From NCBI GenBank assembly GCA_964651225.1, contig CAZYYD010000004.1, positions 8,932-72,931 on the forward strand: a stretch of DNA of 64,000 nucleotides. Direction: 5' to 3'. The notes beneath the pieces were generated by a model, which was not told where the DNA came from, searched no databases, and worked only from the letters and a program-made list of their open reading frames with translations. This stretch comes from an uncultured Ignavibacteriaceae bacterium (lineage in GTDB: Bacteria; Bacteroidota; Ignavibacteria; UBA10030). The stretch's first letter is position 1. Each line of letters starts with the position of its first letter. Both the position numbers and the translations under genes were made by a program. Shown here one piece after another: positions 22,170 through 61,738 of this stretch.

Positions 22170-22400
22170 TTATTTATCCCCTGTAAGTCTTTTCCATTTT
22201 TCCTCGAGAGATTCTTTGGAGTGCATCGGATAGGACTTCGCATACAGTTCTTGAAGCTTTGCCATCGTCAGAACATCGAGATCCTCATCGTCACGGTCCC
22301 GCTTTGCCATCATCTCGAAAGCCCGCCGATCATCCGGCTTCATTTTCATAACAACCTGCTTCAAGCGCTGAACCATTTTGTGCTGCGCAACCGATGTCAT
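22170..22400 (-). CDS. small hypothetical protein
   Basis: The call rests on the ORF and its tight spacing to the AKR gene only. Confidence 0.35.
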   Translation of the reverse strand: MTSVAQHKMVQRLKQVVMKMKPDDRRAFEMMAKRDRDDEDLDVLTMAKLQELYAKSYPMHSKESLEEKWKRLTGDK

Positions 22401-22547
22401 GAAACTTGTTCTCCTGCAATGGTGTGTTTATGTCGACTCGTAATAAAAGTCCTCCGCCGCCCAGCAGGATGATCATGAAGGATTTTACAATGCTTTTCAT
22501 AACCTGCTTCAAAGTCTCTTTTTCTTGATGGGGTCATTCCGTGCGAA

Positions 22548-23063
22548 TCATTTTCCCGCCCACCTTCTCAGGTAAGCGAAAACCTTTTTCTTGTCATGGC
22601 CTTTGACCGGATAACCCTCGGGATATTCGAGTTCCCCTGTGTCTTGTGAATGCAACAGTTTCCCATTTCCCTCCAATATAAAAAGATGCGGATATCCCGC
22701 CACTTTCGGATATTATAAGAGAAATTCTTTATTCTCGTTCTCCTTGCTGACGTTGATCTTCACGACAACATAATACTTGTTAAGGTATTCTTCAAGGTCT
22801 TTATTTTGGATAAAGAGGCTGTCAAGCCAGTGACACCAGATGCACCATTCTCCGCCGACATCAAGGAGTATTCGCTTGTGAGATTCTTGGGCAAGGTGTA
22901 TTGCAATTTGAATATCCTTTGATGCATCACGGGTGGGATCAAACTTTACAGTGCGGTCTATTGTGTGAGATGTATCCTTGAGGAGAGAACATGTATTAGA
23001 ACCAGAGACCATCGTTGAACTTCCCCCTAAAAAAAGTAATCCTACCACGATAAGATATTTCAT
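22548..23063 (-). pseudogene. thioredoxin-fold protein interrupted by an in-frame TAA
   Basis: It has a signal peptide, a CxxC motif (GGEWCIWCHWLD), and KEFLL-TAA(22715-22713)-YPKVAGYPHLFILEGNGKLL… continuing in the same frame to the TGA at 22550-22548. Confidence 0.6.
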
Positions 23064-23541
23064 ACCGAACACTCCAATAGTTTCATACCACAATTAGTAC
23101 TTTTACTAAATCAACGTACAAAAAGTCGACTTTCATATCAACGTATTAGAGATGAATATTCCAAAATTATTATTTGTCGTTCCATCATTCGAACTCCCGG
23201 GAAGTAACATAAGAGTGAAGGATTTGAGCTTGAATATTACAGAGAGAAGAGATATGAGGTTTTTATGCTCCGGTCATTCACAATAGATCCTATAATATTT
23301 AACTGGAATTCTATATAATATTACCTTGATATATTTGAATCTTTAGAATCTCCCAATTCCCCGCCTCGATTGCTCTTATTCCTCTCTTTTCTTGTTATTC
23401 ATAAAATATCCTACTATTATTGCTGCATAAGTACAATATGAATTCTAGACAGGAGGGGACTCATTCATGTGAATGAATTTCTTTTTATATGAAGAGCTAT
23501 GGAAGTAATCTATTCATATCAATAATTATTTCAAAGAATCA

Positions 23542-25437
23542 ATGAATCGATTTATCTTTCTTTTCTTGTTTGGTTTTCCGGGCATGCTTTTTGCACAGAC
23601 ATTTGAATCATTCCAAGCAGTCGTAAAGACTACTAATCCTCAACGCGTGCAACGAGAGAAAAAAGCAAGAGTTCTTGTTGAGCATGACATGAATAATGAA
23701 ATAAACCTAAATCATAGCTCCTTTCCACAATCAAGAAATTCAAATATTGCACATACAACTGTTTCTCCTTCTGAAGGATTCATACTTGGAACTACGGATT
23801 ATGACTACGGATGGAACAGCGGATCACGCCGTACTATCGTAGTCAACGATGCAGGAACAAATGTTCACATGGTATGGATGGAACGAAATCTATCATTGAT
23901 TCCTCCTAGGAATAAATGCACAATGAAATATGGTTACTACGATTGGTCCCTTGGAACGGTTATTACGGGATATCCAGAACAGAATTTTATCTCAGCTTCC
24001 GGTGTGGGCAATGTTGATGTATTTTGGGGTGGTGATGCAGATAATGTTGCAGCATTGTGCGGAGGTCCACCAATCTGGTTTGCCATCGATAGTAGCTCGG
24101 GTGCTGCACATTTCATTAAAACTAACGTTGGAGCAGCAGATGAGTCAACAGGTCCAGCAATTACGATTGATAATTCAAACGCTGGAACAATTTATTTGAC
24201 CTATGATGACGCAAACAGGTTAAATATTTGCATCAAGAAGAGCACAGATTACGGCTCATCATGGACTGATCCCAGCGAATCGATGATTATTACTCCGCCA
24301 TTTGTTATGGGTAATATTGATAATGAAATTCAGGTTGCTCCGAATGGAAATCTCATTATTGTAACGTGCCTCACCGGTTTTGGCGCCGTCGTGCCAGTGG
24401 GTTCGGTTCATCCCGATAGCGCAGATTGTATTGGCTACTACACCTCAACAGATGGGGGTGCTCACTGGACATGGACAACCTTAGGACATGATGGTGATAA
24501 AATTGTCATCGATAGCGATACCCTCTATATTTTCTTTGAGAATTTCGGTTCACTCGACGCACTTGTCGATCACAACAACTGTCTCCACATCGCAGTTGGA
24601 ATGTATGCTGTAAAACTGATCAACGAATCCACAACGGCAAATTACTTCGGGACTCTGTACTGGAAGACCGGTCAAACTGGCTGGAGGCTTATTTCCCGTC
24701 CGGAAGATATGCATATTGCAGATTTCGATAGCTCATACTATCGCTATTCCGGTAATGCTTGTGGACACCAATATCCAACGCTTGCAGCAGATCCCAATAG
24801 TAATTGTGTGTTTGTCATATGGTCACAAACACGTATTACTCATGGAAAGCTTGATGTGGCATATAATGGAATTTCACACTATGATCTCTGGTATAATTTT
24901 TCCATTAATGGCGGTACGAGTTGGTCGACTGCGCAAAAATTGGCGAACAGTGATGGCGGGTTATTTGTCTCTGCTGCTCCAAAATTGACTGTCATCGATG
25001 GAAGCACCTATAGGGCGCATTGCATTTATATTGCTGATACCACGGCTGGCTGCGCCGTAGATGGTGAAAGTGCCGCAACGCAAGTACCGGTCGTCTATCG
25101 AACAATTGATTTCTTCCATGAAGGACCTATAGTTGATTCATCCCCCAGGGATGAGGAACATTCAGGATTACCAAAATATTATAACCTTTTGCAGAATTAT
25201 CCCAATCCATTCAACCCGACAACAGTGATCAATTATGACCTACCAGTAACAAGTTTGGTAAGACTTGTTGTCTACGACCTGCTCGGACGCGAGGTAACAA
25301 CATTGGTGAATGAAAAGAAGCATGCGGGGATGTATTCGGTGCAGTGGGATGCCTCACGAATGGCGAGCGGTATTTATTTCTATCGCCTCAATACTGGTTC
25401 GTTCTCAGCTACCAAGAAACTGATCTTGATGCATTGA
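23542..25437 (+). CDS. secreted BNR/Asp-box repeat protein with T9SS C-terminal sorting domain
   Basis: It has a signal peptide and several SxDxGxTW-like boxes (STDYGSSWT, STDGGAHWT, INGGTSWS). The C-terminus NYPNPFNPTTVINYDLP…GIYFYRL is typical of Por/T9SS tails. Confidence 0.75.
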   Translation: MNRFIFLFLFGFPGMLFAQTFESFQAVVKTTNPQRVQREKKARVLVEHDMNNEINLNHSSFPQSRNSNIAHTTVSPSEGFILGTTDYDYGWNSGSRRTIVVNDAGTNVHMVWMERNLSLIPPRNKCTMKYGYYDWSLGTVITGYPEQNFISASGVGNVDVFWGGDADNVAALCGGPPIWFAIDSSSGAAHFIKTNVGAADESTGPAITIDNSNAGTIYLTYDDANRLNICIKKSTDYGSSWTDPSESMIITPPFVMGNIDNEIQVAPNGNLIIVTCLTGFGAVVPVGSVHPDSADCIGYYTSTDGGAHWTWTTLGHDGDKIVIDSDTLYIFFENFGSLDALVDHNNCLHIAVGMYAVKLINESTTANYFGTLYWKTGQTGWRLISRPEDMHIADFDSSYYRYSGNACGHQYPTLAADPNSNCVFVIWSQTRITHGKLDVAYNGISHYDLWYNFSINGGTSWSTAQKLANSDGGLFVSAAPKLTVIDGSTYRAHCIYIADTTAGCAVDGESAATQVPVVYRTIDFFHEGPIVDSSPRDEEHSGLPKYYNLLQNYPNPFNPTTVINYDLPVTSLVRLVVYDLLGREVTTLVNEKKHAGMYSVQWDASRMASGIYFYRLNTGSFSATKKLILMH

Positions 25438-25557
25438 TACGCGGGAGGAAAAGCGAAACAACGAAATGGGAATTTTTCTTTGTCGGGTTAGGTTCATCCT
25501 CATTGATTTTGTTGATTCAAAGAATACAGGTAAGTGCCCTGAATGATCAAGGTCTTT

Positions 25558-25580
25558 TGGTGCCGAGGGCGGGACTCAAA
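25558..25580 (-). other. isolated tRNA 3'-end-like fragment (possible att site)
   Basis: The minus strand reads TTTGAGT-CCCGC-CCTCGGC-A-CCA, which is T-loop, T-stem 3' arm, acceptor 3' arm, discriminator and CCA. No matching 5' half follows. Confidence 0.35.
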
Positions 25581-25770
25581 GGGTGAAATTTCTTCTAAAG
25601 CATTTTCGTTAGATATAAAGGAAATCAGAGAGTTTAATGGTTTTTTTGTATCCTCGACTTCCCTCAATATCCCCCTATATCCCGCGTCTGATAAACATTT
25701 TGGACACTATTTGGACACTTCTAACCACTTGTTATGGTCTTCAACAAAATAATCTTTTGTCTGTTAACTG

Positions 25771-26487
25771 TCAACTTCTACGCCTCAATCGTGCAGGCCT
25801 CTTTCCAATGCTCCTCTCTTCACGCGCTTGCAGAAGTTGCTTCTTACTGTAAACGACCTTTCGTCCTACCTTTTGAAATGGAATTTTTTGTTCACTTGTC
25901 CAATTCCGAATTGTTTTTTCAGAGACACCTAATAGATCTGCGGCTTCGGCTGCATTGAGATTATCTCTCTTAGAATTGGAGACCTCTGAGATTGACACAA
26001 AATCTGGTCGAATCATTGCTCGACGCACAAAATATTGTCTCCATTGCAAATCTTCCGGGGCTTCTTTCAGTTTTTTTAAAATTCCTTCATCGTCTGGCAT
26101 CATCTTCATAGAAGCGGTAATTGCCTCCAGCCGAGTGGGATTGTAGAATGTGTAGATGAGACTTTCTTCGTCAAAATATATGTCAACAATTACATCATTA
26201 GGATCGACAATAATTTTAGCAAGTCGATGCAACGGTCTCAGTCGAATTATTAATGCTCCTTTATGGCCAACATCTGCCATTATTTTGACATCGCCTAGCT
26301 TATTGAACATTGGTTCTTCAATAATCCGGGATGTTTTAATCTCAGATTGATCCGGGACTAGCGTTTTTGCTTCTCCAGCCATATACGGAGTATCGAACGC
26401 TTCATCAGCATCATAAACGACAATTCCATAATGACCACCTTCATCGTAATAGACAATTACTTTTTTCAGTTTAATTTGTGTCGGCAT
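25771..26487 (-). CDS. DNA-binding protein with C-terminal excisionase/MerR-type HTH and an uncharacterised N-terminal domain
   Basis: The C-terminus is LNAAEAADLLGVSEKTIRNWTSEQKIPFQKVGRKVVYSKKQL. The ATG at 26487 (MPTQIKL…) is preferred, and the gene lies 145 nt downstream of the large fusion gene on that start (55 nt from the longest ORF start at 26577). Confidence 0.6.
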   Translation of the reverse strand: MPTQIKLKKVIVYYDEGGHYGIVVYDADEAFDTPYMAGEAKTLVPDQSEIKTSRIIEEPMFNKLGDVKIMADVGHKGALIIRLRPLHRLAKIIVDPNDVIVDIYFDEESLIYTFYNPTRLEAITASMKMMPDDEGILKKLKEAPEDLQWRQYFVRRAMIRPDFVSISEVSNSKRDNLNAAEAADLLGVSEKTIRNWTSEQKIPFQKVGRKVVYSKKQLLQAREERSIGKRPARLRRRS

Positions 26488-26632
26488 ATTTCCGCCCCTG
26501 TCCTTGCGTTTGCGAATCTTCAAATAATATCGCACACAATTCAAGTGTAAGACGTAAGGCACAACAACACCCTGCAAATATAGGGGATAATGCGACCCTT
26601 ACACCTTACACACGAATTCAGCATCTCATTCT

Positions 26633-29600
26633 TTACGCTTTTTTACTTCCCTTACTTCTCATAAAGCTTGGCCTGATTTTCGCTTTTTTTCGTGGTTCCA
26701 CTTGCTTTTTCCCGTCAGATTGCTGGGGAGCACTTATCAAACCGAATAGCTTCAATTGATCGTTGTTCAGAAGATAGCAGCGAACTGTTTCCCGTTCTTT
26801 TGCTATGTATTTCCCCTTTACACCTATCTTATATTTTTCCTTCAAAAGTTTTGAGAGTTTCGTTTTTTCAGCATCTCTGTTTTTCGAAACGGTAATTCCC
26901 TTTCCCGATACATACCGGTCAAATACGTCTTCCGTGTTGTACCAGCGCGCTTCCAAGGAAATAATAGCAGGAGTGAGTTGTTGAAATATGCTTTTAACCA
27001 ATTCAAGTGATTTGTCATCAGCGGTGGTCTCAGATTCTGATCTCGCTGCCAAGGTAATTAAAAACCCCACTTTCTTCTCAATGAATCTGAACGCATAATC
27101 CACCATTTCTTTTGTCACTTCATCGGTTGCGTACGCTGTTGTTATCGCCCTCAGATATTTATCGATAGACCGTGACAGCCTTGTATGCATATCGCTAAGG
27201 TCAATCGTTGATCCATACTTATCGATAATATCATCCATTAGTCTATCGTATCTCTCAACACGATATTTATCAATCCCCGGTGCATATTCCATATCCCTGT
27301 AATTGGATCGCAGGAAGGCAATGATCGTCTTCAATTCATTCTTCCATTGTTTTCCCTTTAGAGCAGAGTGCTCACCTCGCGCGATTGTTTTTGCTAATTC
27401 TTTTTGTCGTTGTTCATCTTTTGGGATGTCTAGAATAAAATCGAATCGGGAAATAATATGTATAGGGATGTTGATATCAGAGAATTGCGAGTATTTCCCT
27501 TTTTTATCAATTTGACTATACCGATTTTGGTCCAGATGGATAGAGGTTTGTGCAATATGTGTCCTCCTAGCAGAAGTGCTGTCGACCACCTCTCCATCTT
27601 CCATTACTTTTGAAAATATTCCGAATATTTCTTCTCTGGATCTCCCTCGTATTTCGTGGAAGTCCTGGATGCATACGCATCCCATAGAATTCCTTGGGAG
27701 CAATCCATTTTCAGAACTGCTCTTTCCCCCCATGGATACAACTGAGCCAATCAATCCGGCAGCTGTAATTTTCTTATTGCTCGCAGAAATCTCTTCAGAC
27801 AGAGGATTCAATATTAGTGCCGCTTTTGTTAAATATGATTTTCCTACACCTGGAGGTCCTACAACGAGAGAATGAAGTTTATGAGAATAAGTTTCTTTGC
27901 CTTGTGAAAGAGATTGCAGAATCATAAATTCCAGCGCAAGGTCAAGGTGGGGCAACTTAGTCAGGTCCTTTATGCCAAGACCTGTAACAAGCTGTTGTTT
28001 TACATATTCGATGATTCTATTTGTTCCCCTGTAATCATGAAACTTTATAGCTGGATGGTCTGTGTAATCTTTTATCGGTTCTTTCGTAATAACATCTTCT
28101 GGGTCGACCTCAGTTGAGATATATCGAAGATACATTCTGTAGGCAGATTTATTTTTTAAAGAAACAGAGACTATTGCGCCATAGAGTGTGAGCAGTTGTT
28201 GTGTTTGAACAAATGTCCCTATATCAACGAATGAATCTTCAAGTGGGAAAGGAATGCACGGTACCGGTTCGCCATCGAGATCCTTCAGCTTTAGCTTCAC
28301 CGCAGTCCATTCCTTCGGGTCATCATTTCCTTGAGCATCAAGCCTGATAGGATAATAATGACCTACCTGCTGAAGCGTGCCAACAATTTTAACTGGAGCC
28401 CACACCTTTCGTGTTTTCAATATCTCTTGAATACGAGTGCCGGCTTCTTCTTTCCAATGATTATATTCATGCACTTTAATCTTTTTGCCGTCGCTTGTTT
28501 CATACTCATCTTCTATCATCGCCTCAATAGATTTTTCCGTAATCTCAAACTTTTGCTCGTCGATTCCTTCGTCATTATCTGAGAAAGATTGCCGGGCGAT
28601 TCTGAATGCTAATGAGAATGATTCTCCTGATGCCATTTTCTTTTCACTTTCTTTGTTCTCTGCTGTTTCAATCGTTGTTGGAGCAGCAGGGTGAGGATTT
28701 CCGGTATATTGATAAACTGCATCGCCAATCTTACCAACAGGATCCATACCAAGTTTCTCCCAGACCTCAGGATTTTCTGACCCTAGAGTAAAAGGAGCGG
28801 CGGTATATATTTTGAATGTGTCGCGTATCTTTGAATAAATATGGACACGGAAATCAACTGGATATCTCAAACGCTTATCTTCGGGGACGGGATCTTGAAG
28901 ATTTTGTGATGCATCAAACAAAGATGTTTTAGGAAAATGCATTTGAATCGCACTTCTCAACTGTGGCGTATATCGAGCAGAACCGACTATGATGGTGTGA
29001 ATTTTTGTTGGATCAAGCTGTTTCATTGCATACTCTATCATCTTTACATAGTCCTCTTCAAACCCTTCATAAGTGATGATGGGTTCGATTACGAGACTAA
29101 GAGCTATTCCCTTTGCCTGTTGAATTCTTCGGGCCGCATCTATCCGCTCTTGCAAGCTTGAAGTGCCTTGCTCATACGCTTTTATGATGTGCTCGGTATT
29201 TAAACCCATATTTATTCGAATGCGTCCAAAGCCGTCGTATTTTATCATCTCATCTACATAGGCGGACTTTGTTCTTGCTGTCATGCGTAACTTAGGATAT
29301 TTCTCCAGCATCTTCATCATAAAACTTATGTTGCCTGTCAGATGATCAATAGCAAAGATATCGGCATATTCTGAACTGGTTAACACCAAAGGATATTCTT
29401 TATTTTTATCATAATACTGTTTTATAATCTCCCTGGATAAGTTAAAGGCATCTTTAGGAACATTAACCGCTTTCAAGTCTTCATATATCTTGGCCTGCTT
29501 TCCATAAATATAGTCTATGGACGCTCTGTCAGAAACTATTCGATGCTTTACAAAGTATTCTCGAATCCCATCTGCAACTTCCACAAAATTATCTGGGAGT

Positions 29601-30055
29601 TTCATCAACGGAGATTTTATCCCAAATGAATACATCGTCCAGACTGTGAGAATAGCCCAATGTGAGTAGCTGGAAGAGGCAAGTTCTTTCTCCAAAACAT
29701 TCCGGTCCGTATAAATATAATGCTCGGAACATTTTACAAATTGAAGATAACAATATTCACAATTGGCACAGCACGCATTTGTTAAATTACACACTATTGT
29801 AAGTCTCTCAACGATGTTTCCCGGAGAGGAGAACGTCCTAATAAAAGGCACCGTTCTTTCTGATATGATGACTGATTCCTTCATCAAATAGAACTTGTCC
29901 CTTGGAGCCATTCCTTCGGGATAGTCAAATCCACTCTCAGGAAGATTTATTAATTCGGCTTTTGGTGCGTGTGTATGGATTCGAGCGAGGATTTCTTTCG
30001 CCCTTTTGCTGTGCTTTGATTTGGGATGGATGTAGGCACGTTTGGGAATGAACAT
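26633..30055 (-). CDS. fusion protein: spore-photoproduct-lyase-like radical SAM domain + MCM-type AAA+ ATPase
   Basis: N-terminal half: CxxxCxxC in NACCANCEYCYLQF, where the SPL family has C…C.YCYLQ. C-terminal half, in MCM order: VVGPPGVGKSYL (Walker A), ITAAGLIGSVV, GCVCIQDFHEI (Walker B-like), VMEDGEVV and ISRFDFILDIP. Confidence 0.8.
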   Translation of the reverse strand: MFIPKRAYIHPKSKHSKRAKEILARIHTHAPKAELINLPESGFDYPEGMAPRDKFYLMKESVIISERTVPFIRTFSSPGNIVERLTIVCNLTNACCANCEYCYLQFVKCSEHYIYTDRNVLEKELASSSYSHWAILTVWTMYSFGIKSPLMKLPDNFVEVADGIREYFVKHRIVSDRASIDYIYGKQAKIYEDLKAVNVPKDAFNLSREIIKQYYDKNKEYPLVLTSSEYADIFAIDHLTGNISFMMKMLEKYPKLRMTARTKSAYVDEMIKYDGFGRIRINMGLNTEHIIKAYEQGTSSLQERIDAARRIQQAKGIALSLVIEPIITYEGFEEDYVKMIEYAMKQLDPTKIHTIIVGSARYTPQLRSAIQMHFPKTSLFDASQNLQDPVPEDKRLRYPVDFRVHIYSKIRDTFKIYTAAPFTLGSENPEVWEKLGMDPVGKIGDAVYQYTGNPHPAAPTTIETAENKESEKKMASGESFSLAFRIARQSFSDNDEGIDEQKFEITEKSIEAMIEDEYETSDGKKIKVHEYNHWKEEAGTRIQEILKTRKVWAPVKIVGTLQQVGHYYPIRLDAQGNDDPKEWTAVKLKLKDLDGEPVPCIPFPLEDSFVDIGTFVQTQQLLTLYGAIVSVSLKNKSAYRMYLRYISTEVDPEDVITKEPIKDYTDHPAIKFHDYRGTNRIIEYVKQQLVTGLGIKDLTKLPHLDLALEFMILQSLSQGKETYSHKLHSLVVGPPGVGKSYLTKAALILNPLSEEISASNKKITAAGLIGSVVSMGGKSSSENGLLPRNSMGCVCIQDFHEIRGRSREEIFGIFSKVMEDGEVVDSTSARRTHIAQTSIHLDQNRYSQIDKKGKYSQFSDINIPIHIISRFDFILDIPKDEQRQKELAKTIARGEHSALKGKQWKNELKTIIAFLRSNYRDMEYAPGIDKYRVERYDRLMDDIIDKYGSTIDLSDMHTRLSRSIDKYLRAITTAYATDEVTKEMVDYAFRFIEKKVGFLITLAARSESETTADDKSLELVKSIFQQLTPAIISLEARWYNTEDVFDRYVSGKGITVSKNRDAEKTKLSKLLKEKYKIGVKGKYIAKERETVRCYLLNNDQLKLFGLISAPQQSDGKKQVEPRKKAKIRPSFMRSKGSKKA

Positions 30056-30712
30056 AGCTATCGATGATTTTGTTTAGCGTGCATTTATTGCTCTGTTGCG
30101 ATATTATCTTACTTCAGACCGTTACTCTACCCACCACACCGGTCCAACAGATCATCCTGGCATTCGATTTCGCATCAGAGTGCGATCTGAAACAAAACGC
30201 CTCTCTGACATCCTTCGACCAAGCCGGTAGAGCCGGCAGGAAGAACAGGAACCTGCTCAGGTATTCGCCTGTGTCGGTGCTGTAGATGATGGTATATGAG
30301 GTAGGGAGGCGCATCGGCTCAATACTTCCTCGCTTCTTTCTCCTGAAACTCTTTCAACAACGACCAAATTGAATGATACAGGTCCAGCTTCTTCGGCTGC
30401 TCTGGGTCCTTTTTTACCTTGCTTTTGAAATCGGAATAGTCGATTCCATCTATCAAAGAGGTCAGCAAATAGTCAATCTGTTTCCGATTTAGATGCACTC
30501 TGAACCGATAGTCTGCCGTTTTGTTCTCACTCTTACGATACAGACACCTTTTTTATCCCGATGTGCGCCGACTGAATAGAATCCTATTGTAGTTGCGAGC
30601 CACATAGTTTTGATCCTTTAGCACATCCCCGTAAAAATGATGACGTGGGTAGCATTATCTTTTTCATTTGATTGTGATTAACTTTCCCAATGTTTCTGAA
30701 GAAGATATACAT

Positions 30713-32058: not shown

Positions 32059-32679
32059 TTATTTACGGACTATAGCATCAAGCATTGATTTGATTTCCGA
32101 TAATTCTTTTTTAAACTGTTCAGCAATTTCATACCATTTATTTCCCGCTCCCAATTTTCCTTCTAATGACTTCCATTCAAGAACTTGATCCTCTACATAT
32201 AATTTATTATTCAAAGGATTCTTATAACTAACTTTTACCTTATAAGAAGAAAGGGTTAGACTTTGGAGATTGACGAAATTGGAAAAGAATTCCTTTAACT
32301 CAAGATTTGGTGGAAGAAGTGGAATACCGGTTGTAAACTTTGGTGTCTTACTAATTGGATCTCTTTTGTTCCAATCACCTTGGTCTAATTCACTATCAAA
32401 TTCAAATCTGGTATCTTTTGCTTGAAGTTTTCCAATATTCTTGATAACCAATTCGACATTACTTCCGTCTAAGCCAGTTTGGAAGTAGATAATCACGTAG
32501 GGTCGATTCTCCTCCTCCCTCGCCACTTTCATTTCGTTCAACGCTTTCTCAGATGCTTCGACAGACTTCCGTGTTGCATCAGCCATTGCCCAAGTCTTCC
32601 AAACGTAAATGATAATTGCTATCAATGTTAGACATTGAACGATTAAAAGACTGATTTGAACTGTAGTAGAATCCATCAT
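32059..32679 (-). CDS. single-pass membrane-anchored hypothetical protein
   Basis: It has an N-terminal TM helix (LLIVQCLTLIAIIIYVW) followed by a beta-rich domain. Confidence 0.45.
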   Translation of the reverse strand: MMDSTTVQISLLIVQCLTLIAIIIYVWKTWAMADATRKSVEASEKALNEMKVAREEENRPYVIIYFQTGLDGSNVELVIKNIGKLQAKDTRFEFDSELDQGDWNKRDPISKTPKFTTGIPLLPPNLELKEFFSNFVNLQSLTLSSYKVKVSYKNPLNNKLYVEDQVLEWKSLEGKLGAGNKWYEIAEQFKKELSEIKSMLDAIVRK

Positions 32680-32762: not shown

Positions 32763-35292
<2,530 letters not shown>

Positions 35293-35300
<8 letters not shown>

Positions 35301-36912
35301 CCTCTTCCCCACCAGTATCGCCTACCTCGTCACTGGGCCGTTCGGCAATAAGGGACTCAATAAATGCAATCTGTTTCGATGTGATTCCGTAACGTTCAAA
35401 TAAGTCTTTATCGGTCCACATGCGATTCATAGGCAGTAGAGGCACGAAACGGTAAGAGTCACGCGTAATGTTTTGAGTGATCTTTCGAAGTGAAACAAGG
35501 AATCTTACAAATCTTGTTCGCATATACGCAGCGAGGTTTCTAGCTTCAGTCTCGGATTTGCATACACCAATTACAAGATAGGTTTCTGTGCAAGCAGAGC
35601 CTGGAGCTGCGATAACAGGCTCGCCCAAAATCGTGACGTCATCTCGTCCACTTGTGCCGTGAGCCTTGACCAAAAGCACTTTCCACTGATCAATCCATTC
35701 AACATTGCTGGTGATTGCGGAGCGTTCCATGAACGACGTCTGCTGATTTCCATAAACCAAAACGGGCTTTTTAAACCCTTGTTTCGTCGGCTTGCCACGT
35801 TGGTTCGTTAATCCAAAAGGTTTCCTAGCTGACACTTGATCACCGAGACTCGGCTCAATCTGCTTCTTATTTCGGAATCCAGTAACCTTATCGAGTATCC
35901 GCACCGCTTCGTTCCGCCGAACCAGAACATCGTAAGCGTCGAGCTTCCGCACTACGGGTTCACCGATGATCTCGTTTCCGATCATGGTGACTACCTCGCA
36001 GCCACCTTTGTGTTCACGCCCCCATAGCCAATATGAAACGCCACCACGAATCTTGACCCCTGGGAATACGTCATACAATTGAGGGAAATCAACAAGCTTC
36101 ACGAAATGGTGGTCGCGCAACATTCGGTCGCGGAAATCGTCAAGGCCTTTGCCACCTGAGAACCAACGCGAAGGTGTAATCATCGCTGCATAGCGCGGTT
36201 CAAGAGAGAGCACTGACTCAACAAATAGGTTGTAGATCGGCGTCGCAGAAGCGCCACCACCACCGCCGCCATCTCCAAGCTGATACGGGGGGTTCCCGAT
36301 GATTACGTCGAATTGCATGTTACCTCCAAATATTTCAACCAGCCGGTTTTTTATGTCGTCTGTATGAATGAACGTGTACGCATGAGTTTCAAGATCCTCA
36401 GATCGTTCGAGAACGGATCGTGCGGCCCCGCAATACTTACAATTGTTGCCATCCCAAGTGTGCTTGACGCGCTTGAACCAAATGTTGCCATCGTCGGTGG
36501 CAAAACCCTTAACAATGGAGTGTTCACCCATGGCGTGTTTTGAGCAATACACACTTCGCCGCGCAAGCAGGCTGGTGATCTGTGTGATGCCAATGCCAAA
36601 CACTTGCTTGGTTAGGATATGGTTTATGCGCTTTTTTAAATCTGGTATCTCTTTTTCCAATCCCTTCGTGAGGCGGCTGGTGATCTCGCGCAAGAACACG
36701 CCGGATTTTGTGCAGGGGTCCAGGAACTTCACCGTCTTGTCAGCCCAGAGGTTTCCGCCGTCGTGGTTAGCAGCCCATGCCTCGGTCAGCGTGTCCAGCA
36801 TCCAGTTGGCGAACTCTGGAGGTGTGAAGACTTCGTCGTTGGAAAGGTTGGCGATACACGTTAATACATCCGGGTTGCGGCCGCGCAGCGTAAATCTGGC
36901 CTGTGTATTCAT
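35293..36912 (-). CDS. N6-adenine DNA methyltransferase (Eco57I/gamma-class-like)
   Basis: It has SAM motif I FLDPCTKSGVFL and catalytic motif IV IIGNPPYQ, followed by a Gly run. Confidence 0.85.
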
Positions 36913-37553
36913 AGGGTTTCCTCCTTTGCAACGGCGGCCAGTTCACTTACCGTCATTGGCGGGTAAGTCCGGGTTGGTGTGAAGATGTCATGCCTGCCGA
37001 CGTCTGCGAAGAGAGAGTCCTCCGCGCTGAACGCTGCCGATTGCGTCAGGTCACCGAACCGAAAGTCGCGCCTCTGGAATTTGCCCTTGCCTAAGTACCC
37101 CCACTCAGCAAAGGTGATCGGTTGACCATCGTGGGTGCGCATCTTCAGGGCATCGCCGTGGACAAGGTTTTGTGAAAGGACGTGGAATGCGGCCCGATAG
37201 AGATCGTCCGATGGGTCGAGGTTCAGATACTCTGCAAATATTTCCAGCAGGTTCGCACGACACTCGGCGATATTGTCTGTCAATAGTTCGATGCCATACG
37301 CGCACATCAACGCCAATAACGCATACTGCCTCTTCTCAAAATCGGACTTACCGTACTTGAGTTCAACGGCGGCAAGTTTCCGCTTTAGTATTCTGACGAG
37401 ATAATTGCCACTTCCGCACGCCGGTTCCAAGAACCGGGAATCTATTCTCTCCGTCTCATCTTTCACAAGGTCAAGCATCGCCTCAACCATCCAAGCGGGA
37501 GTGAATACCTCACCGTGGTCGGCAATACGTTGTTTTGATTTAATTAAATTCAT
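36909..37553 (-). CDS. short methyltransferase-like protein (motif I only, no NPPY)
   Basis: It has GEVFTPAWMVEAMLD and FLEPACGSGNYL, and ends before any catalytic NPPY/DPPY. There is an ATGA overlap with the downstream methylase gene. Confidence 0.6.
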   Translation of the reverse strand: MNLIKSKQRIADHGEVFTPAWMVEAMLDLVKDETERIDSRFLEPACGSGNYLVRILKRKLAAVELKYGKSDFEKRQYALLALMCAYGIELLTDNIAECRANLLEIFAEYLNLDPSDDLYRAAFHVLSQNLVHGDALKMRTHDGQPITFAEWGYLGKGKFQRRDFRFGDLTQSAAFSAEDSLFADVGRHDIFTPTRTYPPMTVSELAAVAKEETL

Positions 37554-43231: not shown

Positions 43232-44161
43232 CTAGTCTTTGATGCCAACCCACATATAGACATAAAAAGAAAATCTGTTATTAGCAGACGAGCCCCCCGA
43301 CACAAATTCGTAGTAGTTACTAAAAGAGATCGTAGGAGAGAAAGAGCGACCTTTATATTCAAAGGTATCAAAGAATAGGCGTTTTGCAATTCTATCGCGA
43401 TAATCCGAATATTCGCTTTCTGGAAGAGCGAAGTTTTCTGAAATCTCTTTATTCCAATCAGCAAGGCGTACGGAAGAAGAACTCCAACTACTACTATTGG
43501 TATCGAGGTCAAGTAAGTAGAAGTGCACCTTGAGATCTCGAATATATGCACCAGACCATTTACTGAAAATTGGCGTCGTGGTGGCGGTAAATGAGATCCT
43601 AGCTTGGAATGAAACCCTCTTCTCTACCCCATCTTTTGTGTATTTCAATATCACTTCTCTAGTAAGATTCACTTCTTTGTTTTCGTAGCGGAGTCTGGTG
43701 ACCATGTAGTGATCCCAACTGGGCATGATTCCCTTGGATTTATCGAATCTCTCGTCTGCCAAGAGCTCTTCATCTCCGACTTGCGCGAGCCATTTGTCCT
43801 GGCCTGGCGGTATCGTAGGCAGTGGTTCCCATGCAAATCCACTCGTCTTTGCTGCGGAAGTACTTGGTCTTGCCTCTCTGGTATCACTTTCTGAATGGGA
43901 TTTTACATCGTCGTTCATCTTCACAACCGTATTGTCGGCATATAGAATGAGATCAACCTCGGACCGTGGTATCAAAAGAAAGGGTTTGGGTCCCTTTGGA
44001 CGAATCTCAATATTCTCTTCTGTGACACGTAGTATTTTGCATTCTATTACAGTCTTGTCTTTTTTAACAATCTTGTCATAAGGTCCTTTATCTTGAGACA
44101 AAGCAGAGGCGAATGTGAATAGGACAAGAATCAAGGAGAGAATAGTGCGAGGTAGGGCCAT
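43232..44161 (-). CDS. secreted hypothetical protein
   Basis: The internal ATG at 44161 gives MALPRTILSLILVLFTFASALSQ, a signal peptide. Confidence 0.5.
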   Translation of the reverse strand: MALPRTILSLILVLFTFASALSQDKGPYDKIVKKDKTVIECKILRVTEENIEIRPKGPKPFLLIPRSEVDLILYADNTVVKMNDDVKSHSESDTREARPSTSAAKTSGFAWEPLPTIPPGQDKWLAQVGDEELLADERFDKSKGIMPSWDHYMVTRLRYENKEVNLTREVILKYTKDGVEKRVSFQARISFTATTTPIFSKWSGAYIRDLKVHFYLLDLDTNSSSWSSSSVRLADWNKEISENFALPESEYSDYRDRIAKRLFFDTFEYKGRSFSPTISFSNYYEFVSGGSSANNRFSFYVYMWVGIKD

Positions 44162-45075
44162 GGTCGATCTCCCAACAAAGCGATTTGGAGCATTCAACTC
44201 TTTAATGGAGGTATCATAAGAGTTCAATAACCACATTGAATGAATCTGCCCAGATCTAACTTGATCTAGTTTGATTGTCGTGTAAAGATGCAAAAACCTT
44301 CATCATGTATCAGTGAGTCTGCAGGTCATCAAGAATCCTCGTCCGGCTTCTTCTACCGGTGGATAATACGCAGACTACGCAAAGAGGTCAAGCTGTTAAT
44401 GATTTGCAGCATGAGTATCCATCTCAGCCACTCCAGCAACGCCCTTCTCAACATCACACACCTCCAAACACAGGCACCGTTTTCTTATCTGCTAGGTGAT
44501 CGCTTCCAACTTTGATATCGCTGGTATAGCTCGCCTCCATCTTCATCGTCACCCAATAGAACATAAGGATCTGGTTGTTCCATTGACCATTCCTTATGTG
44601 TTTTTGCGAAGGATTTGTTTTCAAGGTAATCAAACCAAAAAACAGTGTCAAGCTCGGTCGAGTTAATTCGATTTACTGTGTAACAACTCGATAAAAATGT
44701 CAGTATCACAGCATAAAATCAATAAAACACTTACATTGAAATTGGACCCTCGATGGGGGCAATTACCCCATAGGAAAAAACTAAACAACGCACTGGCACA
44801 TAAACTGGGGGCAGATCAATCTGCTAGCCTATGGATCGCCTATGAGTGGAAGCTCTGACTTCCGATTTTAGGATGCAGCTTGTTTGTGCTGACTAATAAA
44901 AGAGACCCAGATCATGAATCTTCGAGGCTCGGCGTCGTGATCGACAAACTCACCGCAAAAGTACCACCTTTCTGAAGCGACCAACCCGCAATATTTTTTG
45001 GCCGGCTAGAGAATCAGTTACTCATTCTACAAGAGTCGGCCAATTCGCGCGACTCATCATTCTGAAATCTAATTC

Positions 45076-46302
45076 TCATTCATATTGTACACTTGGCTTG
45101 GGGAGTTCTGCGTTCTTTCTGAGAATCTCCTGATTCGTCTTGTCAATGTCAGCATTCGCCCTCGAAATATCGCGGGTCCATTTATCCACTGCAATTTGAT
45201 ACTGTTGCTTGACGCTGTTTCTAGTTTTAGCATTCTTCTGAATATTTTCCTCAGAAGCCATTTGCACATCTTCGGTCTTAAACACCATTAACCCCCCCCC
45301 TCCAAGAATTGCTATACCCCCTCCATATTTTAGTGCGTCTGATTCAGCATGTGGTGCCGCCACAACCGCGGTACCCAACGCAAGAAAGGTTATCCCCCAA
45401 AACAGAGTCTCAGTGCTGTGTTTCGAAACCATTACTTGCTCGGGCAACATTCGTGCATTCCGTCTTTCGAAAGTTTCGAAATCTATGTAATCAGGATGGC
45501 TAGCGATGGTTTTTGTCGGAATTGTGGCTGACAAATAGGGAACAAAGACTTTGGCCAAGAGTTTCGGTCTAATGGTAACAGAGTATGCTTGAATTCCCAT
45601 TCCATCTCGCCAAGATAGACTATAATCACCGATGGGCAATTTTATCCTTGAGCCATTGGTTAGGCCTTGGATCAGACCACCTTCCAGGGGGAGTACATTA
45701 ATGTAAAAGTTATTAGTTGCGTTTATCTCTAATTCTCCCACCTTGTAAGATTCATAGAAATCTATCTTCAAAGTTGTGGTCTTGTTTTTGAGAATTTCTG
45801 TGATCTTGTCGACATCCACTGACTTGTTCCATGGTTCCGGCAACCACACCGAAGCACGCAGTCTGTGTAAGCCAACCCCAAGTTCTTCTACCGTAAAGGG
45901 AGTTTTTTCCTGGACTGTTTGCCCGTCGATGGTCACAGATGCTTCGCTTGGAGAAGTTATGACTGTCAACTTTCCCAGTCCCTGTTCAATTGATTTGGTC
46001 TCACCCCTCTTTAATTTGAATCCCTCCTTTTTATGTAATACTACTGTACGCTTCTCTATTTCGTCTGCTATTATTCTAACCTGAAATGATTCATTCTCAT
46101 AGCTTTCAAAACTCAATTCAACACTATGCATCCCAGGAGTTAGTTCTATCACTGTTAGTGGGGTGACACCGAGTGTCTTTCCATCAATTACAACATTCGC
46201 CCCTTCTGGATTAGAATATAACTTTAGGTATCCAGTCTTTTGCTGAGCTGGCAGGAAAGAAGTTAAAATGCAGAGTGTTAAAAGAATTGGTGTTATTTTC
46301 AT
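45076..46302 (-). CDS. PEGA-domain protein with C-terminal TM and coiled-coil
   Basis: It has a signal peptide and two PEGA-like modules (NPEGANVVIDGKTLGVTP; SPSEASVTIDGQTVQEKTP). Confidence 0.6.
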   Translation of the reverse strand: MKITPILLTLCILTSFLPAQQKTGYLKLYSNPEGANVVIDGKTLGVTPLTVIELTPGMHSVELSFESYENESFQVRIIADEIEKRTVVLHKKEGFKLKRGETKSIEQGLGKLTVITSPSEASVTIDGQTVQEKTPFTVEELGVGLHRLRASVWLPEPWNKSVDVDKITEILKNKTTTLKIDFYESYKVGELEINATNNFYINVLPLEGGLIQGLTNGSRIKLPIGDYSLSWRDGMGIQAYSVTIRPKLLAKVFVPYLSATIPTKTIASHPDYIDFETFERRNARMLPEQVMVSKHSTETLFWGITFLALGTAVVAAPHAESDALKYGGGIAILGGGGLMVFKTEDVQMASEENIQKNAKTRNSVKQQYQIAVDKWTRDISRANADIDKTNQEILRKNAELPKPSVQYE

Positions 46303-46502
46303 TGCAGCGCCTCAGATATTTTACGTGTTTTGAAGCCATAGATGCGAAGAAATGACATTTAGACCGTCAGATCACTGGAGTTTCTTCAGAAATGGTTGAA
46401 TGTACACACCTCCATCCCTCTGGGCACCAAAACGATTTGTCTGCCAGGTGCCGTAACGTCATGCTCACTCAACTCGCTGAATGATATTGGAAAGAAGTAA
46501 AT

Positions 46503-47078: not shown

Positions 47079-47097
47079 GATGTCTCCTTTCTGCTGG

Positions 47098-55577: not shown

Positions 55578-55643
55578 AGTCGGCTCCTTATTTTATATAA
55601 AGATAGCCAACAGGCACGAGAACTTCGTATCATTGAATGATAG

Positions 55644-56513: not shown

Positions 56514-56528
56514 CTGGCATCCTCCTTT

Positions 56529-57377: not shown

Positions 57378-57504
57378 CGCTCGGACTAGTTCCCCTGGTT
57401 GTGGAATGGCAGGTTTATGTATATCAAAGCTACATAAATTGGAACTACTACGCAATTTGATCTTAGGACACCTTTTCATATTTCGAAAAAGAATACCGGA
57501 AATC

Positions 57505-57565
57505 CCTATATAGACCTGATTTAACGCCAAATAAAAATTCTAGGAATTCGATTTGCCTATATAGA
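57505..57565. promoter_or_regulatory. two copies of CCTATATAGA (palindromic core CTATATAG) 51 bp apart, upstream of the WYL regulator gene
   Basis: Exact 10-mers lie at 57505-57514 and 57556-57565, in the integrase/WYL intergenic region. Confidence 0.4.
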
Positions 57566-57717: not shown

Positions 57718-58752
57718 CTAAGACGCATCATTTTCGAAGATTCGTATCTTATTAACTGCGTTATGTAATTGACACGGTTGCAGATGGGAATAGATCTCTG
57801 TTACTGTTATGGTGCTATGGCCAAGAAGCCGTTGAACCTCATACAAAGGAACCCCATCCTGCACCAACCAACTTGCGAATGTATGCCGCAATGAATGAAA
57901 ATGCAGACATTGTTTCTTGATTCCGCTCACCGATAATATCTTCTCAAATTTATGAGTGACCAAGTTTTCCGCTATCTTCCTTTCATTAAAGGTAAACACC
58001 AATTGTTCTGGATCATCTCTGAATCTTCCTTGAAGCATGGGAAGTAGAGTAGTGTGAATAGGGACGATCCTTTTCTTCCCCGCCTTAGTCCTGAAGGACG
58101 GACCGGATTCTACTTGGATTGTCTTCTTCTCCAGATCGATATTTTTCCACCGCAGATTAGTAATTTCACTGCGGCGCATACCGGTTAGCACCGCAAATTG
58201 AATCACATCTTTGAACCAGTCTTCTTTTATCGCGCTATAAAAAGCGGAAAACTCCTCTTTCGTAAAATATTCAGGATATTGTTCTGGCACACGGCAAAGA
58301 GGTAACAGTGCGAAGGGATGTTGGTTTATCATCTTCCAGCGGTATGCTTTACTTATTGCACCGCGTAGTGCACGAAGCTCGATGTTAACAGTGACCGGTG
58401 ATACTTCCTGTAATCGACTCGATTGATATCTATCCCAATGATATGGGGTTAACCGCTCAAGCGTGATATCACCAATAAGTCTAAGAAAAATGTCTCTCGT
58501 TCTTTCATATATTCCGATAGTTCCTTCCCTAAGATTTGATTTAGAATATTCAAGGAATTGAACCATATACTTTGAGAATAGTTTTGGGGCTTTCCTTTTT
58601 TCACTTTCAATTTTAAAAGTTTGCAGAAATTTTAGTGCATCTGATTTTCTGCGTGCCCTCGTAGACACCTTCTGTCGTCTATTATTGTCATCTCTATAAA
58701 AAAGGTAATAAATGCCATTGCGATGTTTTGAAAGGAACATATCGACCTCCAT
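57718..58752 (-). CDS. int: tyrosine-type site-specific integrase
   Basis: It has the catalytic pattern GMRRSE…, HSLRHTFAS…, and LLGHSTITVTEIYSH (R…HxxR…Y). Confidence 0.9.
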   Translation of the reverse strand: MEVDMFLSKHRNGIYYLFYRDDNNRRQKVSTRARRKSDALKFLQTFKIESEKRKAPKLFSKYMVQFLEYSKSNLREGTIGIYERTRDIFLRLIGDITLERLTPYHWDRYQSSRLQEVSPVTVNIELRALRGAISKAYRWKMINQHPFALLPLCRVPEQYPEYFTKEEFSAFYSAIKEDWFKDVIQFAVLTGMRRSEITNLRWKNIDLEKKTIQVESGPSFRTKAGKKRIVPIHTTLLPMLQGRFRDDPEQLVFTFNERKIAENLVTHKFEKILSVSGIKKQCLHFHSLRHTFASWLVQDGVPLYEVQRLLGHSTITVTEIYSHLQPCQLHNAVNKIRIFENDAS

Positions 58753-58909: not shown

Positions 58910-59410
58910 TCATAGATAATTTTGGGCCTTGTATTGAAGACTTTGTCGGAGGATTGTGAAGCAGGCTTTGTCGAGGTGTTGTCTTTGCATAATTTCTTTC
59001 ATCGTGTATCCAGATGAGATGTCGTTTAGGATGTCCGTTTCGCTCTCGCTTAATGCACTCATAAAGTTGTTCGTGATACAATAATCGAGAGGCGTCGTCT
59101 TCGTATTCAAGACAGCATCACCGAGCGTATGAACATCATTTCTCCGTGTCGGTTTATCCAGATATGATCGCTCCGGTTTATTCCACGCATCCTTCTGACT
59201 CTTCCCCATTTCATCTACTGGGAAGGTTGAACGAAAGCTCAACTCCTTTGAACGGAAATGCATAATTGATTTTTGCAGGCCAAGCGAACACCTCTTGCCC
59301 AATTTCTTTTCCTGCAGAAAAGCAAAGGTAATTAGTTCGCTGCGCTGAAGTTTGTCACGGCTAAATTGCTCTGAATAATGCCATAATGTTTGATAATCCT
59401 GCTCTGACAT
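58910..59410 (-). CDS. putative regulator with C-terminal LuxR/sigma-70 region-4-like HTH
   Basis: LSESETDILNDISSGYTMKEIMQRQHL resembles an HTH of the LuxR/sigma region 4 type. It is divergent from the Ubl operon. Confidence 0.4.
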   Translation of the reverse strand: MSEQDYQTLWHYSEQFSRDKLQRSELITFAFLQEKKLGKRCSLGLQKSIMHFRSKELSFRSTFPVDEMGKSQKDAWNKPERSYLDKPTRRNDVHTLGDAVLNTKTTPLDYCITNNFMSALSESETDILNDISSGYTMKEIMQRQHLDKACFTILRQSLQYKAQNYL

Positions 59411-59830: not shown

Positions 59831-59890
59831 GCAAATGCGAGAAGGCGGACTCGGATTGGGTTCGCCTTCTTCTTTTCTAGGAGCATACCT

Positions 59891-61734: not shown

Positions 61735-61738
61735 GCAA

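Follow-up and report, generated by a model that had tools for sequence, protein, structure and literature searches.

Why is a radical enzyme domain of a family that acts on DNA built into the same polypeptide as a ring motor? The question is raised by a gene in a 64,000-nucleotide stretch of DNA from an uncultured Ignavibacteriaceae bacterium (GenBank assembly GCA_964651225.1, contig CAZYYD010000004.1, positions 8,932 to 72,931 of the forward strand; this whole stretch is called the window below). The gene joins a radical S-adenosylmethionine (SAM) domain of the spore photoproduct lyase (SPL) family to an AAA+ module of the minichromosome maintenance (MCM) type, and it is followed by a partner gene with an excisionase-type helix-turn-helix (HTH) motif. 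A preliminary description, made from the sequence without database searches, had offered two readings of this pair: a two-gene defence or DNA-modification/repair module, or an unusual replication protein of an integrative element. We found that the fusion is real and recurrent, and we tentatively place the MCM-like gene as the helicase (Rep-like) backbone protein of tRNA-targeting integrative elements, with the radical-SAM domain as an accessory head.

The fusion protein and its two halves

The gene order around the fusion was the same on six independently assembled contigs from different samples, all of which carry the identical 1140-residue open reading frame (ORF), and the fused architecture recurs in nine diverged protein clusters with 35-70% identity. 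Additional fusion loci were drawn from species-representative genomes and metagenomes; ~14 non-redundant diverged fusion loci (35-72% identity) retain the catalytic residues. Because the gene order is kept on six contigs and the architecture recurs in nine diverged clusters, the fusion is not an artefact but a real, intact gene under selection, and the possibility raised beforehand that it might be unique to this contig is refuted.

The N-terminal half matches the Pfam SPL family PF20903 with 96.5 bits against a cut-off of 27 (E = 1.9e-27, residues 226-379). This match spans positions 134-288 of the 338-position profile, and the cluster region aligns separately. The C-terminal part matches the Pfam MCM family PF00493 with 45 bits against a cut-off of 23.3 (E = 9.2e-12, residues 718-891). 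A sequence search of the PDB found SPL at 2.5e-17 and, after SPL, only MCMs, at 8e-8. We built an AlphaFold2 model of the full protein from an alignment of ten homologues; its mean predicted local distance difference test score (pLDDT) of 64.6 is moderate, with good confidence in the radical-SAM domain and the OB-like barrel and poor confidence in the AAA+ core (pLDDT ~40-55). Using this model, Foldseek returned SPL (4fhf) first, with E = 1.2e-16 and a TM-score of 0.80 normalised to SPL, and MCM2-7 subunits next at about 1e-12, with long alignments. Between the two halves lies a linker of variable length in the family alignment, and residues 455-545 contain 22 Asp and Glu compared with 12 Lys and Arg. 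The motifs quoted in the preliminary description are all located: FIPKRAYIHP (2-11) and NACCANCEYCYLQF (93-106) in the N-terminal half, VVGPPGVGKSYL (731-742), ITAAGLIGSVV (763-773) and GCVCIQDFHEI (792-802) in the AAA+ part, and VMEDGEVV (817-824) and ISRFDFILDIP (868-878) further along it. Its assignment of an SPL-like radical-SAM half, an acidic linker, an OB-like segment and an MCM-like half with collinear motifs was therefore sound.

The cluster region of the head could be aligned to SPL (4fhc, 4fhg) residue by residue, so that CMGHCHYCYLQ of SPL corresponds to CCANCEYCYLQ, and by this alignment C95-x3-C99-x2-C102 are the cluster ligands. We aligned the heads of 29 diverse SPL-like members, comprising MCM fusions, stand-alone proteins and fusions to other partners. 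The three cysteines are invariant in 29/29, as are Y103, L104, E229, D232, E324, Y336, R361, R397, Y398 and W432, and R304 is present in 28/29. The SPL radical relay uses one Cys and two Tyr (PMC5368176). Both tyrosines have counterparts here: Y103 (SPL Y98) is found in all 29 members, and Y101 (SPL Y96) is Tyr or Phe in 28 of them. The cysteine has none. Glu229 aligns with the SPL position (chain position 167) that is mutated in PDB entries 4FHG (C140S) and 4FHE (C140A); because these entries differ at the aligned position, Glu229 stands where the H-donor Cys140 of SPL is. Glu occupies this position in every one of the 29 members, and no alternative conserved Cys outside C95, C99 and C102 was found in their alignment. 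Compared with SPL, the head also has a ~90-residue helical insertion after the cluster loop (residues ~118-218, from the alignment and the model helices).

The CxxxCxxC motif and the SPL fold match place the head in the radical SAM superfamily, and at the Pfam domain level it is a member of the SPL family. At the equivalog level it is not: TIGR04070 gives 97.8 bits against a cut-off of 400, and TIGR03886 gives 46.2 bits against 437.55. Judged from its sequence, the head is an SPL-fold family member with an intact-looking 4Fe-4S/SAM site, but it is not a canonical SPL, because the H-donor Cys is replaced by an invariant Glu; the Cys step of the SPL relay must be different in such an enzyme. The earlier SPL-family reading thus stands for the fold and the cluster.

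A profile of the motor, built from 26 family members and searched against the PDB, reached MCM7 at 2e-15, and 42 of the 42 PDB matches were MCMs. The Walker A motif GPPGVGKS with K739, the sensor-1 residue N844 and the Arg finger R870 (SRFD) are invariant and in MCM7 register. The sensor-2 residue R959 is also invariant, and TRL aligns with the TPR of MCM7. In contrast, the Walker B-like IQDFH (796-800) follows the family signature I-Q-[DE]-F-H instead of the I-D-E-F-D of MCMs and is not canonical, which corrects the earlier reading of the MCM-like motifs at Walker B.

The OB-like barrel was modelled at residues ~514-647, with strands beta1-3, a helix at 612-618 and strands beta4-5, at a pLDDT of 70-87. 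The same domain is present in stand-alone MCM-like relatives, which align to residues 533-1003 of the query, and no Zn-finger Cys or His ligands are conserved in it across the family alignments. The C-terminal tail of the fusion has low confidence in the model; in relatives, winged HTH (wHTH) matches to Pfam, namely an Arg_repressor DNA-binding domain in protein P0036 and HTH_DeoR in P0090, agree with the winged-helix-like tail described earlier. These alignments assign the C-terminal two-thirds to the MCM clade of AAA+ ATPases, as a divergent member with an OB-like domain, a core and a wHTH. Helicase activity of this module is plausible, with the prophage protein BcMCM as a parallel (PMC2715239).

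A modular family on the backbone of integrative elements

A HMMER scan of 1.84 billion representative proteins gave 1300 matches, 151 of them below 1e-30. Separate proteins exist for each half, with ~450 residues for the SPL-like and ~570-680 residues for the MCM-like part. The heads found on the module of OB-like domain, MCM core and wHTH are a J-domain, NADAR, a generic PF04055 radical-SAM domain and the SPL-like domain, and some modules have no head. J-domain-headed proteins are numerous and have ~665 residues; the polyomavirus large T antigen is likewise a replicative helicase that carries a J-domain. NADAR serves as the head of sister MCM-like proteins or is encoded in the same operon (P0036, P0061, P0083, L054 and L056), and in the L056 operon SPL-like, MCM-like and NADAR proteins are encoded by separate genes.

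The SPL-like domain also has other fusion partners. It is fused to a DUF5906/VapE superfamily 3 (SF3) helicase in P0024, to DUF3631-type P-loop proteins in both orders (P0046, P0084 and P0042) and to DUF5131 in P0052, and it forms a tandem SPL-like pair in P0022. The assignments of P0022 as a tandem pair and of P0042 as an SPL-like domain with a DUF3631-like P-loop domain come from local hidden Markov models (HMMs); the non-SPL parts of P0046, P0022 and P0042 gave no match in a sequence search of the PDB. The SPL-like domain, a short radical-SAM protein of PF04055 and DUF5131 (the Gp37/Gp68 family) occur together or as fusions with one another (L037 4845-7991, L056, P0052 and P0022). Together with NADAR, this co-occurrence suggests a toolkit of DNA-acting enzymes around the motor. 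In a neighbour-joining tree of the MCM cores, the SPL-like fusions form essentially one clade, whereas the J-domain, NADAR and short radical-SAM heads are scattered; hence, the SPL-MCM fusion is old and maintained, and head exchange is frequent.

The partner protein starts at the ATG at 26487, as the preliminary description had preferred: its homologues align from M31 of the longer ORF, the public gene call has the same 238 residues, and the spacers of 55 nt (from the long ORF) and 145 nt are as described. Its C-terminal ~50 residues match HTH_17 (excisionase/MerR-like) at 4.7e-12, which is the only family match in the protein. The HTH is thus the sole recognisable family, as had been stated, but the ~170-residue N-terminal domain, which has no known family, is also conserved across homologues. 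A Foldseek search with this domain against the PDB and BFVD gave no significant match. The AlphaFold2 model of the partner has a pLDDT of 77, and its C-terminal wHTH superposes on Pukovnik Xis and RdfS with TM-scores of 0.70-0.74. Full-length homologues of the partner (E from 7e-29 to 3e-51) are encoded after MCM-like genes of four types: SPL-MCM (L001), head-less MCM-like with a separate radical-SAM gene (L015), J-domain-MCM (L019) and radical-SAM-MCM (L022). Because the partner follows all four, the MCM-like gene and its partner form a conserved core.

We annotated the surroundings of 72 loci with HMMs of recurring neighbours and obtained 55 non-redundant MCM-like loci, of which the 36 with at least 900 nt downstream were used for the downstream count. 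Within three genes of the MCM-like gene, 28/36 loci have the partner (15), a ~225-residue helical protein (6) or a tyrosine or serine recombinase (11). The helical protein replaces the HTH_17 partner in those six loci. This alternative partner (L006-L009, L011, L040 and L053) has ~225 residues, is all-helical with a Lys-rich tail and is unrelated to the HTH_17 partner. In six loci a short second radical-SAM gene, weakly DUF5131/SPL-like, adjoins the MCM-like gene. tRNA genes abut the integrase or the partner in L037, L041, L019, L020, L057, L030, L062 and L040. The backbone therefore contains the excisionase-type HTH gene, the recombinase and the tRNA attachment (att) site of a rep-xis-int-type arrangement, and its hosts are FCB-group bacteria (Bacteroidota, Ignavibacteriota/Melioribacteraceae, Calditrichota and Marinimicrobia), in which it forms tRNA-targeting integrative elements.

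The clearest layout is seen in L037, where a complete ~9.8-kb element lies in a 2.9-Mb contig between host AcrB and a tRNA-Leu with a host histidine kinase. Its gene order is DUF5131, Ymh, a 170-residue ORF, a short radical-SAM gene, SPL-MCM, partner and integrase. The annotation of this element shows neither a primase nor a second helicase, and genes for transfer or capsids are also absent; SPL-MCM is its sole helicase or replication candidate. No second att copy was found in L037 or L041. In six loci (L007, L015, L016, L017, L022 and L025), a divergent pair of a DUF5659-like small protein and a primase-DUF5906 SF3 helicase faces the MCM-like operon, so that two genes of helicase type are present in these elements; the primase is of the DnaG type in L015 and a PrimPol in L007.

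Function of the fusion and its rival readings

The MCM-like gene belongs to the backbone of these elements and not to their cargo, because its place beside the recombinase, the Xis-like gene and the tRNA is constant in dozens of elements while the cargo varies, and because the J-domain and head-less versions keep the same partner. Replication of an integrative element, which the preliminary description had given as the alternative, is in this respect the best-supported reading, with the partner, the helical protein or a recombinase downstream in the 28 loci counted above. For an MCM-clade ring with a wHTH, the backbone role that fits best is to initiate replication of the excised element or to serve as its helicase. 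Once the element is excised, the partner, as a recombination directionality factor and/or an origin- or operator-binding protein, and the MCM-like ring would act on the circular element; the ring would load on the element DNA and unwind it or translocate along it. The tethered head would then apply SPL-type 5'-deoxyadenosyl-radical chemistry to the bases that the motor exposes, by H-abstraction at the C6 of a saturated pyrimidine followed by beta-scission of a C5-linked bond.

That the substrate of the head is DNA exposed by unwinding is argued from its repeated fusion to motors of three unrelated families. Compared with spore-photoproduct repair, both the substrate and the final step of the chemistry would be different, because an invariant Glu takes the place of the H-donor Cys. 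In this scheme the head may erase a replication-blocking pyrimidine adduct or crosslink, a role proposed by analogy with the NADAR heads and neighbours of sister proteins. NADAR reverses the ADP-ribosylation of DNA bases and is used by phages to counter DarTG1 (PMC11543638, PMC11257639), and it is the only sibling head with established DNA chemistry. It is possible, though doubtful, that NTP-driven rings of all three kinds (MCM, SF3 and DUF3631) feed DNA into a radical-SAM site that erases or writes an undescribed pyrimidine C5/C6 adduct. If so, the ring and radical-SAM machine would add another class to the DNA-directed radical-SAM chemistry of SPL and M6 gp53, one which mobile elements would use at their own replication fork for counter-defence or self-marking.

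Several observations weigh against the role of a replicative helicase with an erasing head. In the motor, the first acidic residue of Walker B is a Gln throughout the family, and the Lys of the pre-sensor-1 hairpin is absent: VMEdGevIDSTSA aligns to VMEQQTISISKAG and has Ser or Thr there. The pre-sensor-1 region has low confidence in the model, and the AAA+ core is too poorly modelled to carry claims about a hairpin or pore loop. In the elements, no replication origin was identified, and the minimal element of the L037 type lacks a primase. The MCM-like protein is not always the sole helicase, because 4-5 of the 22 loci with at least 3 kb upstream also carry a divergent primase-SF3 helicase (DnaG- or PrimPol-DUF5906). 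The circular-contig test found none among all 72 loci, and IMG/VR viral contigs, INPHARED phages and PLSDB plasmids contained no relatives beyond ordinary splB. Finally, up to three radical-SAM-type genes co-occur (DUF5131, short radical SAM and SPL-like), a set that looks at least as much like multistep modification as repair.

The last point leads to the main rival, an unlikely but serious one, in which the DNA of the element itself is passed by the motor to between one and three enzymes of radical-SAM type that install a pyrimidine modification in cis, shielding the element from restriction or marking it as self. A tethered motor acting in cis would explain the fusion, and the SPL-fold protein gp53 of phage M6 performs a proven step of thymidine hypermodification (PMC8989533). 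The clustering of radical-SAM-type genes with the SPL-like domain or their fusion to it (DUF5131-SPL in P0052, SPL-SPL in P0022, and L037) and the invariant Glu229 in place of the Cys that SPL needs to complete repair somewhat favour such a writer. However, the elements lack the usual precursor enzymes of hypermodification (hydroxymethylases, kinases and transferases), and no modification-dependent nuclease is consistently linked to them. Moreover, the core of MCM-like protein and partner functions without any radical-SAM protein in J-domain and head-less elements, and the NADAR siblings are erasers, not writers.

Defence against phages or plasmids is rather improbable and the least supported of the serious rivals. 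Here the pair would be cargo: the MCM-like ATPase would sense foreign DNA or translocate on it, the head would damage it or make an inhibitor, and the HTH protein would regulate. The island of the window is rich in defence genes (type IIG-like restriction-modification, Mrr, an IetA-like ATPase and a WYL regulator), L022 has interleaved AIPR genes, and radical-SAM enzymes do occur in defence, for example in Ophion. Viperins are likewise radical-SAM enzymes in defence. The partner HTH resembles MAD1 of the MADS system at 1.6e-8, although this is a generic HTH_17 similarity. Against these points, 0 families of PADLOC-DB v2 match the fusion, the gene keeps its constant backbone position while the cargo is variable, and the same core of MCM-like protein and partner also occurs with a J-domain, with NADAR or with no head. 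Neither the J-domain nor the NADAR head resembles an effector, the gene is not associated with a nuclease, a toxin or another obvious effector, and the active site is of the repair or isomerase type; the two-gene defence module first suggested is thus not supported. Ophion was also considered as a relative and rejected, since its composition is unrelated.

Very unlikely is an ordinary repair enzyme for UV lesions of the spore-photoproduct type, fused to an inactive or regulatory AAA+ module and serving the host instead of the element. The strong similarity to SPL in fold and motifs, including the relay Tyr, and the label 'DNA repair photolyase' that JGI gives to homologues would fit it, but the H-donor Cys140 is Glu in every aligned member with no other conserved Cys, both equivalog cut-offs are missed by far, the AAA+ module keeps its catalytic residues, and the gene is always found in mobile DNA. 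The host lineages are not known for spore formation, and spore photoproduct is not expected in them. An assembly or frameshift artefact joining two genes, for which it could be said that both halves exist as separate genes elsewhere (as in L056), is ruled out by the identical ORF on six contigs from different samples and by the ~14 independent, diverged fusion loci that form one clade.

The island in the window and comparison with known systems

The features of the fusion gene, its partner and the surrounding island are collected in Table 1.

Table 1. Features of the fusion locus and its island in the window (aa, amino acids; R-M, restriction-modification; MTase, methyltransferase)
Feature	Position	Strand	Basis or remark
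SPL-like radical SAM/MCM-like fusion gene	26633..30055	-	Intact ORF, ATG start, 1140 aa
Head, SPL-family radical-SAM domain, aa 1-450	28706..30055	-	Invariant residues, SPL alignment, fold match
Acidic, partly disordered linker, aa ~451-530	28466..28705	-	pLDDT <50 at 453-478
OB-like N-terminal domain of the MCM-like module, aa ~531-700	27956..28465	-	Modelled beta strands; stand-alone relatives
MCM-type AAA+ core, aa ~701-900	27356..27955	-	Pfam MCM; MCM7 profile register
AAA+ lid with sensor-2 R959, helical region and winged-helix-like basic C-terminal tail	26636..27355	-	MCM7 alignment
Partner gene, 238 aa: all-beta N-terminal domain, two helices, excisionase-type wHTH	25771..26487	-	HTH_17
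Imperfect inverted repeat in the fusion-partner spacer	26538..26618		22-nt arms, 82% complementary, CTTACAC repeats
tRNA-Leu 3'-end fragment GAGTCCCGCCCTCGGCACCA, att remnant, left island end	25558..25577	-	Single copy, none expected by chance
Small conserved ORF, 66 aa, directly upstream of the fusion	30114..30314	-	L010 homology
Two membrane/coiled-coil proteins, 346 and 206 aa	30713-31753, 32059-32679	-	No family match; lowest GC of the island, 0.35-0.37
R-M module, type IIG-like split: ResIII 849 aa, Eco57I-family N6-MTase 539 aa	32763-35312, 35293-36912	-	
Tyrosine integrase of the island	57718..58752	-	Phage_integrase 3.4e-33
166-aa gene beside the integrase	58910..59410	-	Homologue of the second gene upstream of the L010 fusion

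The boundary of the island at a tRNA fragment, first noticed in the preliminary description, was confirmed. The fragment, which sits about 190 nt past the stop codon of the partner, equals the 3' end of the tRNA-Leu(tag) that flanks the element integrases of L037 and L041, bar two T-stem bases. To its left are host-looking genes for a Por-tail secreted protein, a thioredoxin-like protein and ATP synthase subunits. ARAGORN and Rfam found no complete tRNA or other RNA gene in the 64-kb window, and no second tRNA-Leu fragment was found in it (up to 3 mismatches, or a 12-mer with up to 1). As neither an intact tRNA nor a second att copy is present, the right boundary of the island and the intact tRNA are outside the window or lost. 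Between 22300-26000 and 58600-60200 there were no exact direct or inverted repeats of at least 12 nt.

The inverted repeat in the spacer may serve as an operator, as an attenuator or as a binding site. A perfect tandem TTTGGACACT x2 at 25699-25719 lies between the partner stop and the tRNA fragment, and both repeats are candidate binding sites for the partner or the integrase. A scan for sigma-70 promoters and terminators gave no more sites than shuffled sequences, a scan that is ill-suited to Bacteroidota-type promoters, and no TAnnTTTG motif was found upstream of the fusion operon.

Both ends of the island are linked to L010 and its compact module by two small genes that have counterparts there. 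The 66-residue ORF shares 65% identity over 55 residues (2e-26) with a 95-residue ORF just upstream of the L010 fusion, and the 166-residue protein shares 52% identity (3e-63) with its L010 counterpart; neither has a Pfam match. The island integrase is of the family found beside SPL-MCM genes at other loci and clusters with the integrases of L001, L003, L010 and L015. The pair of fusion and partner had been described as lying between the tRNA fragment and an R-M module, and both of these are present, but the two membrane-protein genes separate the fusion from the latter. The R-M region (32763-37553), in which the MTase gene overlaps the ResIII gene by 20 nt, also includes a truncated second MTase of 214 residues. 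Its GC content of 0.50-0.53, compared with ~0.40 for the rest of the island, suggests recent acquisition. Comparable MTase fragments occur in L019/L020, close to the J-domain-MCM gene.

To the right of the R-M pair, the island contains Mrr, insertion sequence (IS) elements, the IetA-like AAA ATPase, a UDG-like gene, the WYL regulator and the integrase. At 54327-57530 (- strand), an AAA ATPase that matches PADLOC IetA (1.9e-15) is followed by unassigned ORFs of 288 and 185 residues; upstream of it are a UDG-superfamily-like gene and a WYL/WCX HTH regulator, beside the integrase. These genes are possibly an Iet-like or novel defence cassette under WYL control. Right of the integrase, the + strand at 59498-63305 encodes a ubiquitin-like protein of the ThiS/SAMP type with a terminal GG, a coiled-coil protein, a protein resembling ThiF/E1 (PADLOC E1-E2, 4e-14) and one resembling Mu Gam, which may form a ubiquitin-like conjugation cassette (Bil/CBASS-accessory-type) in mobile DNA. 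A Gam gene is also found near the SPL-MCM fusion of L002. The mobile-looking DNA with these ThiS-like, E1-like and Mu Gam-like genes extends as far as the window does. Within the island, an IS1-like transposase and an element of the IS3 family (orfA/orfB) are located at 43232-44293 and 51531-52888, and host-type surface proteins (PEGA and Laminin_G_3) are encoded at 45076-48594. Because these host-type genes sit between the IS elements, the island is probably composite or rearranged.

A full-text literature search, in which absence is not proof, found no description of an SPL or other radical-SAM domain fused to MCM or any other helicase, in agreement with the novelty claimed in the preliminary description, and none of the backbone of MCM-like gene and partner. 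SPL was listed as the only DNA-acting radical-SAM enzyme before phage M6 gp53 (PMC8989533). Already known are thus MCM-like helicases on bacterial mobile elements and SPL-fold enzymes on DNA in two cases; new is a mobile-element helicase with an unprecedented enzymatic head. The finding matters for radical-SAM chemistry, few examples of which are known on DNA, since an SPL-type site whose Glu is specific to the family has been joined repeatedly and stably to motors of three unrelated families. This speaks for a substrate in DNA that becomes accessible by unwinding, and for a lesion or modification not yet described. It also defines a previously undescribed backbone of integrative elements in FCB bacteria, made of an MCM-like gene, a partner with a beta domain and an Xis-type wHTH, and a recombinase at a tRNA gene, on which defence cargo is carried. 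The exchangeable heads (J-domain, NADAR, radical SAM and SPL-like) suggest that mobile-element helicases are platforms for fork-tethered accessory enzymes, which would include likely counter-defence erasers.

Compared with SplB (PDB 4FHC and related; PF20903/TIGR04070), the head shares the fold (TM-score 0.80), the CxxxCxxC motif in the context C..(Y/F)CYLQ, the relay Tyr equivalent to Y98, and the TK, N, E.GT and R motifs, and action on DNA is probable for it. It differs in the invariant Glu for Cys140, the ~90-residue helical insertion and an equivalog score far under the cut-off, and in being fused to DNA motors or encoded beside them in mobile elements, whose host lineages are not known as spore formers. 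Phage M6 gp53, an SPL-like radical-SAM isomerase of thymidine hypermodification (PMC8989533), likewise has the SPL fold and comes from a mobile genetic entity; its substrate is a C5-substituted thymine in DNA and not UV damage. It is a stand-alone protein within a multi-enzyme cluster (kinase, aGPT-Pplase and PLP enzyme), and no such genes were seen here; the two are likened by fold.

Bacterial integrative plasmids and phages carry MCM-like helicases that are usually fused to primases (PMC5862659). In BcMCM, the primase-MCM protein of a Bacillus cereus prophage, and its kin (PMC2715239, PMC3273815, PMC5862659), a divergent MCM-clade module on an integrated bacterial element likewise has an enzymatic domain fused N-terminally and a wHTH C-terminally. 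However, the head there is an archaeo-eukaryotic primase (AEP), while here it is an SPL-type radical-SAM domain (in siblings a J-domain, NADAR or radical SAM) with no fused primase. The present fusion also retains the OB-like N-domain and has a Q[DE]FH Walker B. Polyomavirus large T antigen combines a J-domain, an origin-binding domain and an AAA+ helicase, and the ~665-residue siblings with a J-domain on the MCM-like module resemble it, which supports an initiator-helicase role for the module. Large T antigen is an SF3 and not an MCM protein and is eukaryotic/viral, and the protein of the window has a radical-SAM head in place of the J-domain.

In the case of NADAR, including phage AdfN (PMC11543638, PMC11257639), the same head position or operon on sister MCM-like proteins is occupied by a domain that sets a precedent for erasing a replication-blocking DNA adduct as counter-defence; its fold and chemistry are unrelated to those of SPL, and the likeness is one of analogy. 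In SCCmec, the Cch helicase, described as MCM-like where it is cited (PMC5862659, PMC10061031), adjoins the ccr recombinases, which recalls the layout of the SPL-MCM elements. A parallel in gene order is also offered by the rep-xis-int operons that pSAM2 and other integrative elements of actinomycetes carry (PMC2440964), which share the order of helicase or replication protein, excisionase-type HTH, recombinase and tRNA att site. The Rep proteins of the comparison systems are rolling-circle initiators, prim-pols or DUF927 helicases, whereas here the corresponding gene is MCM-like; the Xis-like partner here has an extra ~170-residue beta domain, and replication of the elements described here is a proposal from their gene layout.

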